Sequence record: OR062947.1
Reading direction: 5' to 3' (one strand)
Source: Escherichia phage 348Ecol098PP
DNA length: 64,000 nt
The notes beneath the pieces were generated by a model that saw only the letters and a list, made by a program, of their open reading frames with translations, did not search any database and was not told the DNA's origin. Of this stretch, positions 8,226 to 56,947 are shown one piece after another; within the stretch, counting starts at the first letter, position 1; every line of letters starts with the position of its first letter. A program made the translations under genes and the position numbers.

Positions 8226-9535
8226 CATTTGATGATTTGACTGAAGGCCAGAAAAACGCCTTCAACGTTGTTATGAACGCTATTAAAGAAAAGAAACATC
8301 ACGTAACTATTAATGGGCCTGCTGGTACAGGTAAAACAACCCTTACTAGATTCATCGTTGAAGCCCTTATTTCTTCTGGAGAATCAGGTATTATTTTAGC
8401 AGCCCCTACACACGCCGCTAAAAAGGTTCTAAGCAAACTTGCGGGTCAAGAAGCATCGACTATTCATAGCATTCTTAAAATCAACCCAACTACATACGAA
8501 GAAAACGTATTGTTTGAACAGAAAAAGGTTCCCGACTTAGCCTTGTGCCGTGTACTGTTATTTGACGAAGCGTCAATGTGCGACCGTTCTCTGTTTAAAA
8601 TAATGTTAGCTAGTATCCCTAAATGGTGTACAGTAATTGGAATCGGCGACCGATGCCAGATTCGTCCGGTAGACCCAGGCGAATCAACTGCGTATCTAAG
8701 TCCTTTCTTCACTCACAAAGACTTCGTGCAATGCAATCTTACAGAAGTTAAACGTAGCAATGCACCAATTATTGATGTTGCGACTGATATTCGTAATGGC
8801 AAATGGATTTACGATAAAGTAGTTGATGGACACGGTGTTCACGGATATACAGACCTTAAATCGTATATGATGAACTATTTTAACGTCGTTAAAACTCCTG
8901 AAGACCTTTTCGAAAATCGAATGATGGCATTCACAAATAAGTCGGTGGACAAGTTAAATTCAATTATTCGCCGAAAACTTCTTGAAACAGAAAAACCATT
9001 TATTAAAGACGAAGTCATTGTTCTACAAGAGCCGTTTACTAAGACATATAAGCTAGATGGTAAAAATATGACCGAAATGCTTTTCAATAACGGCCAATTC
9101 GTTCGTATTCGAGATGCTGTAGAAACGTCTACATTCGTTAAAGCACGTGGTGTTTCAGGCGAATATATGATACGATACTGGAATCTTACAGTAGAAACAT
9201 ATGGGGATGATGAAGAATACATCCGCGAAGATATAAAGGTTATTTCTTCTGAAGAAGAGCTTTATAAATTCAATTTGTTTTTGGCTAAGACCGCAGAAAC
9301 ATACAAATTTTGGAATAAAGGTGGTAAAGCTCCATGGAGCGAATTCTGGGATGCTAAACGTATGTTCACTAAGGTGAAGGCGCTACCAGTATCAACCTTC
9401 CATAAGGCCCAGGGTATGTCTGTTGACACTGCCTTTGTTTATACACCGTGTATCCATTATGCCGATTCAGAATTAGCTAAACAGTTATTGTATGTCGGCA
9501 CAACTCGCGGTCGGTTTGACGTCCATTTTATTTGA
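8222..9535 (+). CDS. dda: Dda DNA helicase (SF1B)
   Basis: 437 aa; MTFDDLTEGQKNAFN...INGPAGTGKTT (Walker A) matches remembered T4 Dda. Confidence 0.92.
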   Translation: MTFDDLTEGQKNAFNVVMNAIKEKKHHVTINGPAGTGKTTLTRFIVEALISSGESGIILAAPTHAAKKVLSKLAGQEASTIHSILKINPTTYEENVLFEQKKVPDLALCRVLLFDEASMCDRSLFKIMLASIPKWCTVIGIGDRCQIRPVDPGESTAYLSPFFTHKDFVQCNLTEVKRSNAPIIDVATDIRNGKWIYDKVVDGHGVHGYTDLKSYMMNYFNVVKTPEDLFENRMMAFTNKSVDKLNSIIRRKLLETEKPFIKDEVIVLQEPFTKTYKLDGKNMTEMLFNNGQFVRIRDAVETSTFVKARGVSGEYMIRYWNLTVETYGDDEEYIREDIKVISSEEELYKFNLFLAKTAETYKFWNKGGKAPWSEFWDAKRMFTKVKALPVSTFHKAQGMSVDTAFVYTPCIHYADSELAKQLLYVGTTRGRFDVHFI

Positions 9536-52892: not shown

Positions 52893-53978
<1,086 letters not shown>

Positions 53979-53979
<1 letters not shown>

Positions 53980-54382: not shown

Positions 54383-54658
54383 ATGTTCCCAACTTATTCT
54401 GAAATTGTAAAGGTAGTCTTCAGTCAGATTATTGCTAATAATATGTTTGAAGTGCTTGATAATGCAGCCGAACTCAGAGTTCATGCTCAACTAACTCATG
54501 TACTCAATGCTTTGCTCCCAGACCAAGTAGATTCTATTGCTATTACTCTTCTCCCTGGGTCTGCACACGTCATAGTGGTATTTGATCTTGACGGCGATTT
54601 AGTTATCCAATGTGATATCAATTTCGGTACACAAAAAATTGAATGCAAAGCAATTTAA
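54383..54658 (+). CDS. hypothetical protein
   Basis: 91 aa ORF; gaggtaat SD. Confidence 0.45.
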   Translation: MFPTYSEIVKVVFSQIIANNMFEVLDNAAELRVHAQLTHVLNALLPDQVDSIAITLLPGSAHVIVVFDLDGDLVIQCDINFGTQKIECKAI

Positions 54659-54660
54659 TG

Positions 54661-54699
54661 GTTTACAACATGGTGGAGTTGTGATACTATAACTCTACC
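54661..54699 (+). promoter_or_regulatory. early promoter with imperfect 9-bp inverted repeat around -10
   Basis: gtttac at 54661; ggtggagtt ... aactctacc flanking tactat. Confidence 0.5.
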
Positions 54700-54718: not shown

Positions 54719-54955
54719 ATGCTAAGTGAAAACCCAATTACAGTACACGAATTTCAGATTAAAGTAAAAGAATTTGCTCAAGCACTCATCAATAAAGTGT
54801 CTGAACGTTTCCAAGATGCAACATTACGAGTTATTCAAGAATCTCCACGTTCTTTTCTCATAATCGTTAATCCTAAAGATGGTGACCAAATTACTAATCT
54901 TAAATTAGGCAGTGATGGTCTTGTTGAAGCAACTCGAGTATATGGAACACTATAA
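54719..54955 (+). CDS. hypothetical protein
   Basis: 78 aa; gaggaaat SD. Confidence 0.45.
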   Translation: MLSENPITVHEFQIKVKEFAQALINKVSERFQDATLRVIQESPRSFLIIVNPKDGDQITNLKLGSDGLVEATRVYGTL

Positions 54956-55075
54956 TGAGAGCTATCTCATTACTATCGAGAATGGTCATAAATCTGAGCA
55001 CTACCAACTTAGCCTGTCTAATCCGGTTAAAGGTATTGTTGAATCAGAATCTGTTTATATCTCCTAAGGATTGTT

Positions 55076-56068
55076 ATGTTACCTGTCGTCAGAAAACTTA
55101 TTTCTCCAAAAGAACTGGCTGAGATTATTCCTTTGTCGGAAGCTTACGCATCACAAGTGGCTTCTCATCGTGAACAAGTTAATTCGATTATGAACGGTGA
55201 AGACCCACGCAAACTTATTGTTGTAGGTCCTTGTTCAATTCATGACCCTATTGCTGCTGTTGAATACGGCAAACGTCTGGCTGAACTTCAAACTCGTCTT
55301 CCTAATGTTCTGTTAGTGATGCGCGTTTATTTTGAAAAGCCTCGAACTACCGTAGGTTGGAAAGGTCTTGTAAATGATCCATATCTTGACGGAAGTTTTG
55401 ATATGAACCACGGTCTTATAGTTGCACGAACATTGTGTCGTAAACTTCTACGTATGGGACTTCCATTAGCAACTGAAGTATTAGACCCATTCACGATTAA
55501 GTATCTTTCTGGTATTTTCTCATGGGTTGCTATTGGCGCCCGTACGACTGAAAGTCAGACACATCGTGAAATTGCTTCAGGTCTACCGATGTGCGTAGGC
55601 TTCAAGAACGCAACCAGTGGTTCTATTAAAGTAGCTACAGACGCGATGTATAGTGCCGCCTGGCCTCATCGGTATATGGGTATGGACGTCGATGGTACTG
55701 TAGGCATTGTTGAAGCTGAAGGTAATCAGAATACGCATATCATATTGCGTGGCGGGACCAACGGCCCGAACTATCATTCTTCTGATATTCAAGAAGCTTC
55801 TAACAAAGCAAGTGCAGTAGGTCTGAATCATTATGTAATGGTTGACTGTAGCCATGCAAACGCTGCTGGGCATTATAGCAATCAAATTGGTATTGGTAAA
55901 AATTTAGCAGCTAATGATTTGGTCAAAGGAATTATGATAGAATCATTCCTACATGAAGGAAATCAAAAAATTTCTGATAATATGTCCTATGGCGTTTCCA
56001 TTACCGATGCGTGCATCAGTTGGGAACAAACTAAAGAGCTGTTAACTTATATTAATAAGGTTCAATAA
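55076..56068 (+). CDS. 3-deoxy-D-arabino-heptulosonate-7-phosphate (DAHP) synthase, AroG/AroF-like class I
   Basis: 330 aa; VVGPCSIHDP, LLVMRVYFEKPRTTVGWKGLVNDP, WVAIGARTTESQTHREIASGL, VGFKN, HIILRGG, SITDACI align by eye with E. coli AroG. Confidence 0.8.
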   Translation: MLPVVRKLISPKELAEIIPLSEAYASQVASHREQVNSIMNGEDPRKLIVVGPCSIHDPIAAVEYGKRLAELQTRLPNVLLVMRVYFEKPRTTVGWKGLVNDPYLDGSFDMNHGLIVARTLCRKLLRMGLPLATEVLDPFTIKYLSGIFSWVAIGARTTESQTHREIASGLPMCVGFKNATSGSIKVATDAMYSAAWPHRYMGMDVDGTVGIVEAEGNQNTHIILRGGTNGPNYHSSDIQEASNKASAVGLNHYVMVDCSHANAAGHYSNQIGIGKNLAANDLVKGIMIESFLHEGNQKISDNMSYGVSITDACISWEQTKELLTYINKVQ

Positions 56069-56649
56069 TGAAAGCTAGCACATATCTTCAAATTGCTTAT
56101 TTGATTTCTCAAGAATCAAAATGTTGTTCATGGAAAGTTGGTGCCGTCATTGAAAAAGATGGACGCATTATTTCTACAGGTTATAATGGCTCTCCTTCAG
56201 GTGGTACAAACTGTTGCGAACATGCGTCCGAAAACGGCTGGTTGAAGAATAAACCAAGCCCGGTCATCGTTGCTGGGCATAAAGAAGGCACTACAGCATT
56301 TGGACGGGCAGATAATTTTGTTTTGGCTAAAGAACATCGGGCTGCTCATAGTGCATGGTCTGCTAATAACGAAATCCATGCAGAATTGAATGCAATTTTG
56401 TTCGCAGCTCGTAAAGGTAATTCTATTGAAGGTGCTACGTTATATACTACGCTTTCTCCGTGTCCTGATTGCACTAAAGCTATCACACAATCAGGCATTA
56501 AAAAGGTCGTATATGCAGAATTATATGACCGGTCTCCTGAAAATTGGGCAGACATTCTAAAACAAGCTGGTATTGAAGTAATTCAGTACTCTCGTAATAA
56601 TCTTCGTTCTCTGAATTGGGAACAAATCCGAAACTTTTGTGGTGAATAA
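56068..56649 (+). CDS. cd: dCMP deaminase
   Basis: 193 aa; ...LQIAYL.SQESKCCSWKVGAVIEK.GRIISTGYNGSP...HAELNAILFAAR.G.SIEGAT.Y.TLSPCPDC.KAI.QSGIKK matches remembered T4 Cd. Confidence 0.88.
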   Translation: MKASTYLQIAYLISQESKCCSWKVGAVIEKDGRIISTGYNGSPSGGTNCCEHASENGWLKNKPSPVIVAGHKEGTTAFGRADNFVLAKEHRAAHSAWSANNEIHAELNAILFAARKGNSIEGATLYTTLSPCPDCTKAITQSGIKKVVYAELYDRSPENWADILKQAGIEVIQYSRNNLRSLNWEQIRNFCGE

Positions 56650-56650
56650 T

Positions 56651-56947
56651 ATGATTTTAACTGAACAAGAAACTATGGTTCTTCGTGAACGTATTAAAAC
56701 TATTCTGTCTGTAGGCGTTCATCGTGTTGTATTTGAAAAGGCTAATGGTGATGTTCGTACGATGTTTGCTTCTCGTGATGAACTTGAAGTCAAATATGAA
56801 AATAGAAATCCAGCAACAGAAGTTCGTTCTGAACCTCGTGAATCAGTTCGAGCATTCGATACCGAGTTAGGTCAGTGGCGTTCTTTCCGCCTTGATAAAG
56901 TAATTTCGGTTGATGGTACTCCGGTAGAACGTTTGCTTCTTATGTAA
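56651..56947 (+). CDS. hypothetical protein
   Basis: ATG at 56651 after ggtga SD (track start 56639 is GTG); 98 aa. Confidence 0.5.
   Translation: MILTEQETMVLRERIKTILSVGVHRVVFEKANGDVRTMFASRDELEVKYENRNPATEVRSEPRESVRAFDTELGQWRSFRLDKVISVDGTPVERLLLM

Follow-up and report, generated by a model that had tools for sequence, protein, structure and literature searches.

The 64,000-nucleotide stretch of DNA from Escherichia phage 348Ecol098PP (sequence record OR062947.1) analysed here, hereafter called the window, carries at 55076..56068 (+) a gene for a type Iα DAHP synthase (3-deoxy-7-phosphoheptulonate synthase; DAHP, 3-deoxy-D-arabino-heptulosonic acid 7-phosphate). Its open reading frame (ORF) and its family and profile matches place it in a phage clade, PHROG 5045. 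The reading that we favour, and consider reasonably probable, is that the product is an active DAHP synthase, expressed early in infection and no longer inhibited by phenylalanine, tyrosine or tryptophan, which would open the entry of the shikimate pathway. We infer enzymatic activity, loss of inhibition and early expression alike; the insensitivity to Phe, Tyr and Trp is most likely because the inhibitor pocket has been rebuilt and about eight N-terminal residues are gone. The phage gene itself has already been catalogued, and its remodelled pocket appears to be undescribed in the literature that we searched. What is new here is thus the remodelling of the inhibitor pocket across a whole clade, and not the presence of the gene in phages.

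Family identity and catalytic residues

The gene is a 330-aa ORF with an ATG start that spans 55076..56068 (+). Upstream, the first stop codon in frame is a TGA at 55040, and there is no other possible start between it and the ATG, so that the shortened N-terminus discussed below is real in the DNA. The protein matches the Pfam family DAHP_synth_1 (PF00793; E=1.1e-75) and passes both the NCBIfam equivalog model TIGR00034 (aroFGH; 427.7 bits against a cutoff of 173.2) and the subfamily model NF009395 (456.2 against 343). It does not pass the models specific for AroG (NF006723; 365 against 568) or AroH (NF009396; 385.1 against 463), and no AroF-specific NCBIfam model was among its matches. The PHROG 5045 profile, of the category ‘moron, auxiliary metabolic gene and host takeover’, covers residues 1-330 (E=1.5e-181); the protein is a member of this T4-like ‘phospho-2-dehydro-3-deoxyheptonate aldolase’ family, from which it does not differ at the family level.

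Among solved structures, the closest relative is the Tyr-sensitive AroF of Escherichia coli (6agm, E=1.5e-104), followed by the Neisseria enzyme NmeDAH7PS and by AroG (to ~1e-92). Identity is 51% to AroF, 48% to AroG and 45% to AroH. An AlphaFold2 model built with 55 homologues (mean pLDDT 93.2, pTM 0.92) was matched by Foldseek to type Iα enzymes (NmeDAH7PS, AroG) with a TM score of 0.96 and an rmsd of 1.3-1.5 Å. On the (β/α)8 barrel, the model places helices at residues 11-17 and 22-39 and strands at 198-203 and 209-214, which correspond to the N-terminal extension and the internal β-hairpin. The phage protein therefore shares family, fold and catalytic residues with AroF (PDB 6AGM/6AGL), AroG and AroH and keeps their N-terminal helices and internal β-hairpin, while being 18-26 residues shorter overall, 7-9 of them at the N-terminus. 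A first reading of the gene, made from the sequence alone, had called it a full-length class I DAHP synthase, and the ORF and family models bear this out, specifying type Iα. Its further label ‘AroG-like’ is imprecise, given the failed AroG model, the better match to AroF and the Gly that marks Tyr-type enzymes at the specificity position. Nothing marks the protein as a 3-deoxy-D-manno-octulosonate 8-phosphate (KDO8P) synthase: the model search returned DAHP synthase models only, the KPRTT motif is present and the structural neighbours are all DAHP synthases.

The four metal ligands lie in invariant alignment columns on the + strand: the catalytic Cys53 (AroG C61; 55232..55234), H260 (AroG H268; 55853-55855), E289 (AroG E302; 55940-55942) and D311 (AroG D326; 56006-56008). 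The ligands of phosphoenolpyruvate (PEP) are also identical, with phage R83, K88, G154-A155-R156, K177 and R225 aligned to AroG R92, K97, G163-A164-R165, K186 and R234. The same is true of the KPRT motif for PEP and erythrose-4-phosphate (E4P), which is K88-P89-R90-T91 in the phage protein; the longer KPRTT motif K88-T92, predicted to bind both substrates, is encoded at 55337..55351 (+). All catalytic columns have zero entropy over 24 clade members, down to 56% identity. That the catalytic motifs are conserved, as first noticed, has thus been confirmed residue by residue for metal, PEP and E4P binding, and the alignment shows no loss of a metal- or PEP-binding residue. The ratio of nonsynonymous to synonymous substitution rates (dN/dS) between phage genera is 0.15-0.25, with dS saturated; the comparison between the window gene and that of UKE1 was not used, since it offers too few substitutions. 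As far as sequence comparison can tell, purifying selection acts on the phage enzyme, its full regulatory scaffold included, and the gene is predicted to encode a catalytically competent, metal-dependent, full-length type Iα enzyme.

Remodelling of the inhibitor pocket

In AroG, the Phe site is built by the N-terminal extension and the β-hairpin across the tight dimer (PMC4735112). Q151 and S180 bond the main chain of the inhibitor, and a salt bridge made by D155 stabilises the site (PMC9529685). The substitutions D146N and P150L make AroG fully feedback-resistant and M147I and A202T partly so, and S180F, L175D, L179A, F209A/S and V221A are also feedback-resistant (PMC9529685). In yeast, resistance to feedback is well established for the ARO4 allele Q166K (PMC7513737, PMC5879953).

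Several pocket positions are altered in the phage protein, which has I141 for AroG P150, K142 for Q151, G146 for D155, P171 for S180, C173 for P182 (C, T or A in the clade), S193 for A202, Y200 for F209 and the Tyr-type G202 for S211. The first three lie in one pocket segment, VLDPFTIKYLSGI (residues 135-147; 55478..55516, +), placed by alignment, by the literature and by yeast Aro4. P171 and C173 lie in a second segment, IASGLPMC (residues 166-173; 55571..55594, +), placed by alignment; Y200 and G202 belong to the retained regulatory β-hairpin (residues 198-214; 55667..55717, +), placed by the AlphaFold2 strands and the alignment. The first segment is colinear in yeast Aro4 (1hfb; LDTISP165-Q166-YLADL), AroG (LDMITP150-Q151-YLADL) and the phage protein (LDPFTI141-K142-YLSGI). 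Since yeast Q166 aligns with AroG Q151 and phage K142, the phage clade naturally carries the ARO4 Q166K change. The salt-bridge partner of D155 is ambiguous: the K127 named in the review does not fit this numbering, in which position 127 is an invariant Arg (R127) and the Lys at 128 (K128) is relaxed among clade members.

These residues are a property of the clade. Among the 24 members, Ile, Lys and Gly are each found in 23 and Pro and Tyr in all 24, whereas P, Q, D, S and F stand in 30-31 of the 31 cellular sequences closest to the clade. We searched 321 well-aligned columns for those at least 90% conserved both within the phage (n=24) and within the cellular group (n=31) and occupied by different residues. 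Only seven separate the groups: P150I, Q151K, D155G, L156I, S180P, F209Y and T223A. Five of the seven fall within 14 allosteric columns (hypergeometric P=1.5e-6), and the other two are close by, L156I beside D155 and T223A two positions from V221. The 14 columns comprise 11 confirmed from the literature and 3 further ones; the enrichment is independent of these three, because all five columns are among the confirmed 11.

The second alteration concerns the N-terminus, MLPVVRKLISPK (55076..55111, +), where the alignment shows no equivalents of AroG residues 2-9, D6 and D7 included. The catalytic Cys is preceded by 52 residues in the window protein and by 60 in AroG; the protein has 8 fewer than AroG, 9 fewer than AroF and 7 fewer than AroH. 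The clade as a whole has 48-52, against 59-61 in AroF, AroG and AroH and 58-95 in 28 other cellular relatives. We take D6 and D7 of the partner subunit of AroG to be in contact with bound Phe, and AroF N8K or ΔIle11 presumably abolishes inhibition by Tyr; the literature that we searched yielded nothing on AroG D6/D7, AroF N8K or ΔIle11. The inhibitor-bound chain 1kfl_A has 350 modelled residues against 339 in the unliganded 1qr7_D and 1gg1_A, which is suggestive of, and consistent with, a role of the N-terminus. Compared with AroG, 5 residues are missing from the C-terminal tail, and we found nothing linking this tail to regulation.

The sequence-only reading had proposed a feedback-insensitive enzyme on the grounds of an N-terminus about 12 aa shorter than that of AroG and a divergent C-terminus. 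The idea of insensitivity gains support in silico, but the decisive signal lies in the pocket substitutions and not mainly in the termini: the N-terminus is indeed shorter, by 8 residues in the alignment, and the C-terminus, although shorter, has no evidence for an allosteric role. The alignment with AroG, AroF and AroH and the mapping of feedback residues that it had recommended are what revealed the replacement of P150, Q151, D155, S180 and F209.

Compared with feedback-regulated AroG, AroF and AroH, the phage protein thus has neither the canonical inhibitor pocket nor the N-terminal residues contributed by the partner subunit. Its changes resemble known resistance alleles at several points. 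Where AroG P150L has an aliphatic residue the clade also has one (Ile), where S180F loses the Ser the clade loses it too (to Pro), and the Gln to Lys change is identical to that of yeast ARO4 Q166K. Unlike the engineered or selected alleles, the phage changes are natural, combined and fixed in the clade, and are accompanied by D155G, F209Y and the N-terminal truncation. The type Iβ ‘bare-barrel’ DAHP synthases (e.g. that of Pyrococcus furiosus) are unregulated and have no regulatory appendages. Loss of feedback is presumed in both cases, but the phage enzyme keeps the appendages and alters the lining of the pocket.

Distribution, genome context and expression signals

A tblastn search gave 212 phage records with the gene; a handful among them, about five of which were inspected or noted, proved to be misfiled bacterial DNA. 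The records annotate it as ‘phospho-2-dehydro-3-deoxyheptonate aldolase’, ‘DAHP synthetase I alpha’ or ‘aroF’. The gene of Kanagawavirus KLB31 has been listed as an auxiliary metabolic gene (AMG; PMC11845039), and a listing of the domains of phage phiC120 glosses this one as ‘LPS and aromatic amino acid biosynthesis’ (PMC8022965; LPS, lipopolysaccharide). In the literature searched we found such passing mentions only, and no enzymology, genetics or expression study of any phage DAHP synthase.

Homologues in 139 Mosigvirus records share 98-99% identity with the window protein; for those of Kanagawavirus, Marfavirus, Bragavirus and other phages the figure is 57-77%. A search of 5.8 billion proteins returned 24 cluster representatives of 319-343 aa, 56-98% identical, of which all the named ones are from T4-like phages; cellular proteins (341-398 aa) formed a plateau at 50-55% identity. 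The phage group was recovered as a bipartition in 200/200 neighbour-joining bootstraps. These results indicate a monophyletic clade confined to T4-like (Straboviridae) phages of Enterobacterales. Its locus is also conserved. The gene lies downstream of pseT in Mosigvirus, Kanagawavirus Entb_45, Marfavirus F48, Bragavirus PM2 and a metagenomic T4-like contig (P0020), and downstream of a pseT-like kinase gene in short metagenomic contigs (P0022), where no cd was called. The dCMP deaminase gene cd follows directly in Mosigvirus, Kanagawavirus, Marfavirus and the P0020 contig, and after two small ORFs in PM2. The GC content at third codon positions (GC3) of the DAHP synthase gene is 0.29, like that of its phage neighbours, against 0.50-0.57 for host aroF, aroG and aroH. 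Because of the phage-only clade, the conserved locus, the phage-like GC3 and the low dN/dS, the gene is best read as an old, selectively maintained phage gene and not as a recent capture from E. coli. In contrast to aroF, aroG and aroH, it combines a phage-like base composition with the lack of a close cellular donor: a word-indexed search gave no cellular protein above 55% identity, and a search with the clade profile through 1.84 billion 50%-identity representatives gave no cellular protein with the I-K-G-P-x-Y signature.

Two candidates for independent acquisition by phages, ‘Pseudomonas phage Y13’ (OQ572414.1) and a gut ‘Bacteriophage sp.’ (MT836486.1), were rejected as bacterial chromosome. 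Their DAHP synthase genes have high-GC neighbours (CobN-like, thiolase, CstA, a LacI-type regulator, major facilitator superfamily transporters) and largely canonical pockets. The Acinetobacter ‘MD-2021a’ and Salmonella records look like the same contamination. Contaminated or ‘UNVERIFIED’ records of this kind, among which CAKLQH020000056, OR851216 and AGRM01000002 are also listed, inflate the counts of ‘phage’ DAHP synthases and are not independent acquisitions. Also rejected were the top-scoring relatives in the profile search, P0121 (799 aa) and P0122 (730 aa), which are tandem double-DAHP-synthase fusions whose score is the sum of two canonical domains. Both look eukaryote-like, and the degenerate catalytic motifs of P0122 (PVSAHD versus PCSIHD, DEPTGG versus EKPRTT) suggest pseudo-enzyme domains.

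The genome of the window is that of a Mosigvirus, an RB69-like T4-type coliphage, and many Escherichia and Shigella phages match the 4.4-kb neighbourhood of the gene at 98-99% identity. On the + strand, the direction of early transcription in the window, the gene order is frd, td, nrdA, nrdB, denA, rnlA, alc, spanins, pseT, cd.4, an ORF227c-like gene, cd.3, cd.2, a 41-aa ORF, the DAHP synthase gene, cd, 31.1, 31 and rIII. Here pseT is a GTG-initiated 299-aa ORF (53080..53979, +), followed by cd.3 (54383..54658, +), cd.2 (54719..54955, +) and, beyond the DAHP synthase gene, cd (56068..56649, +; Pfam dCMP_cyt_deam_1). The placement between pseT and cd, as first described, holds for cd, which the gene directly abuts; five small ORFs separate it from pseT. 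It was also correctly noticed that T4 has only small cd.x ORFs in this interval: these are cd.5-cd.1, and the window gene occupies the slot of T4 cd.1. Names of the neighbours are inconsistent among near-identical public records, in which pseT appears as ‘zeta toxin’, ‘AAA family ATPase’ or ‘kinase’, cd as ‘ribD’, ‘tRNA-specific adenosine deaminase’ or ‘ComEB’, and the 31.1 protein (56639..56947; WYL_2/SH3-like) as ‘tail fiber protein’. In MZ234025 the start of pseT is placed 120 nt downstream of the GTG at which the pseT ORF of the window begins.

RB69, the type species of the same genus, has no DAHP synthase gene, and its cd.2 directly adjoins cd. A blastn comparison with RB69 shows an indel at ~54971..56064 with 96-97% identity on both flanks. 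The region is matched at ≥95% identity by 145 records, 139 of which cover all of it, and a protein at ≥95% identity is encoded in 139 records. On either side of the module lies a copy of an imperfect direct repeat of 19 bp: the left copy, ATAATGAGAGCTATCTCAT (54952..54970, +), is a degenerate cd start and the right copy, ATAATGAAAGCTAGCACAT (56065..56083, +), is the true one. RB69 has a single copy (locus L005, ~8237-8255), the empty site. The 41-aa ORF of the inserted module (54942..55067, +; phrog_15876, E=1.9e-32; a CDS in MZ234025) matches the cd.2 family phrog_1504 over profile positions 44-76, in its C-terminal half (E=1.8e-5), and is closer to the cd.2 of Kanagawavirus/Marfavirus type (SYLITIE...VES.SVY) than to the resident Mosigvirus cd.2. 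We read it as a remnant of a foreign-type cd.2, from its C-terminal half, or as a paralogue of that half. Because of this remnant and the flanking repeat of the cd start, the ‘cd.2-DAHP synthase-cd’ block reads as a presumed lateral import from another T4-like genus into an RB69-like backbone.

A putative promoter of the T4 early type, (G)TTTACA-17 nt-TG-n-TACTAT, was found by consensus scan in the gap between cd.3 and cd.2 (54662..54690, +), and the T4 annotation has an early promoter between the same two genes. Among the sigma-70-like sites of the region, this was the only one kept, on positional grounds. The DAHP synthase gene itself is preceded by a Shine-Dalgarno sequence, AAGGA (55066..55070, +), 5 nt before its ATG, and its stop codon overlaps the start of cd in a TAATG (56066..56070, +), both read directly from the sequence. 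No late promoter (TATAAATA) was found on the + strand between 52900 and 56200, and a search for MotA boxes upstream of the gene gave nothing convincing. Together, the promoter candidate, the Shine-Dalgarno sequence and the TAATG junction are most simply read as signs of early co-transcription and coupling to cd: cd.2, the 41-aa ORF, the DAHP synthase gene and cd are probably co-transcribed early from the cd.3/cd.2 promoter, and the DAHP synthase is probably coupled translationally to cd. On the antisense (-) strand inside the gene, we observed a terminator-like hairpin (55733..55750) and the best-scoring sigma-70-like site of the region (55872..55900), both most likely due to chance given the expectations from shuffled sequences.

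Alternative readings and significance

The alternative that survives best, although we consider it unlikely, is that the phage carries an ordinary feedback-regulated, AroF-like, Tyr-sensitive isozyme, which adds DAHP synthase capacity after host shut-off and whose pocket differences are neutral drift. AroF is its best solved match, with the Tyr-type Gly at the specificity position, and the N-terminal helices, the β-hairpin and D146, L179 and V221 are all conserved, but drift would not be expected to produce near-invariant replacement residues, nor to concentrate the clade-defining substitutions in the pocket (P=1.5e-6). Moreover, three of these substitutions occur at positions where a single change confers resistance (P150, S180 and Q151/Q166K), Q151 and S180, which both hydrogen-bond the inhibitor main chain, are replaced together, and N-terminal residues are missing.

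We give a slim chance to a second alternative, in which the pocket has been re-tuned to another effector, such as a phage-relevant metabolite or nucleotide, thereby coupling the shikimate entry to the infection programme. The whole regulatory scaffold is under purifying selection, I141, K142, G146, P171 and Y200 stay near-invariant from 98% to 56% identity, the new residues bring in one cationic and one hydroxyl side chain, and the product of the coupled neighbour cd is itself, according to annotation, an allosteric enzyme in T4. Retention of the scaffold is, however, explained by the tight-dimer interface alone (PMC4735112), Lys at the position of K142 is a simple loss-of-inhibition change in yeast, and none of the results indicates a candidate ligand. 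A more specific form of this idea is similarly doubtful: that the new pocket (I141, K142, G146, P171, Y200) is the phage's own allosteric gate to the shikimate pathway, coupled to cd in transcription and translation. In a further variant, a deregulated enzyme may serve as a sink for E4P and PEP that pulls non-oxidative pentose-phosphate flux toward nucleotide precursors. We consider it highly improbable that the protein acts in vivo as anything other than a DAHP synthase, whether as a KDO8P-synthase-like or neofunctionalised member of PF00793 or as a non-catalytic subunit that hetero-oligomerises with the host enzyme: PF00793 does include KDO8P synthases, as the gloss in PMC8022965 recalls, and a heterodimer could in principle deregulate the host enzyme, the type Iα allosteric site spanning the dimer, but the protein passes the aroFGH equivalog model by a wide margin, has a TM score of 0.96 to DAHP synthases and an intact, invariant KPRTT motif and Cys/His/Glu/Asp metal site, hetero-oligomerisation is speculative at 45-51% identity to the host isozymes, and the strict conservation of catalytic residues speaks against a non-catalytic role.

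Several observations weigh against the deregulated enzyme that we favour. Across the clade the pocket columns hardly vary, with a mean entropy of 0.32 bit where the average over all columns is 0.97 bit, and, in the AlphaFold2 model, the entire regulatory architecture is retained; conserved replacements on a kept scaffold would fit a functional, possibly re-tuned, site equally well. Because D146, L179, V221 and the Tyr-type Gly (G202) are kept, some sensitivity to Tyr may also persist. The roles given above to AroG D6/D7, AroF N8K and ΔIle11 are presumed ones, and the early promoter is known from its consensus alone, whose matches are no more frequent in this region than by chance (13 sigma-70 sites against 13.9 expected from shuffles). 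RB69 and T4 do well without the gene, which is therefore dispensable in some settings at least. Finally, among the 150 best 50%-identity representatives, 72 of 148 single-domain proteins deviate at two or more of the five key positions, and some of these also have short N-termini; the canonical pocket is thus typical of near relatives and not of the whole family.

The variant lineages with a short N-terminus, such as P0177 (L-K-D-I) and P0152 (Y-K-D-S), are 37-48% identical to the phage protein and show no specific kinship to it, and the phage combination of pocket residues occurs in none of them. In P0148, P0152, P0177, P0199, P0220, P0230, P0246, P0258, P0263, P0269 and P0270, a short N-terminus, with 47-53 residues ahead of the catalytic Cys, goes together with a non-canonical pocket, and the catalytic residues are intact. 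Such lineages may represent further naturally deregulated or re-tuned enzymes. The phage clade is one of several lineages with a remodelled pocket, and is distinguished by its location in phages and by its match to characterised resistance alleles.

If the phage enzyme is indeed deregulated, it would catalyse the shikimate pathway's first committed step, the condensation of PEP and E4P to DAHP, as the product of an AMG transcribed early from the cd.3/cd.2 promoter and coupled to the translation of dCMP deaminase. The redirection of PEP and E4P during infection, which the sequence-only reading had suggested, is likewise a prediction. The N-terminal helices and β-hairpin would have been kept while the pocket was rebuilt, as they also build the tight-dimer interface, and infected cells would direct carbon into DAHP and chorismate despite their aromatic amino-acid pools and the shut-off of host gene expression. 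The benefit would not be a mere topping up of scarce aromatic amino acids, because a feedback-sensitive enzyme would suffice for that. Deregulation points instead to a flux that persists when aromatic amino acids are plentiful and the host DAHP synthases are inhibited or repressed. In a rough apportionment, the largest share, short of half, would go to aromatic amino acids made in excess for the surge in phage protein synthesis, a somewhat smaller one to chorismate-derived cofactors, e.g. folate (td, frd, hydroxymethyl-dC chemistry) or quinones, and the smallest to a drain on E4P and PEP that pulls central carbon metabolism. That the gene lies beside cd, at 7-10 kb from frd, td and nrdAB, hints at a link to nucleotides or folate; since the pseT-cd interval is a known variable region, its place may also reflect a permissive insertion site only.

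The significance of these observations has its limits: the gene is already widely annotated, AMGs for rate-limiting enzymes are a known theme and no long-standing question depends on this one. RB69, which lacks the 1.1-kb module, offers a natural, isogenic-like comparator, and aroFGH mutants, simple enzyme assays and the genetics of T4-type phages are at hand as standard tools. If our reading is correct, the clade would provide a panel of feedback-resistant enzymes for the production of aromatic compounds, and this would be a naturally evolved, phage-borne, feedback-resistant DAHP synthase, fixed across several genera of T4-like Enterobacterales phages, that combines at three pocket positions substitutions like those which engineers introduced singly. 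Lytic coliphages would then deregulate the entry to aromatic compounds and chorismate besides boosting nucleotide supply, a testable case of the capture of a pathway gate outside the paradigm of marine cyanophages.

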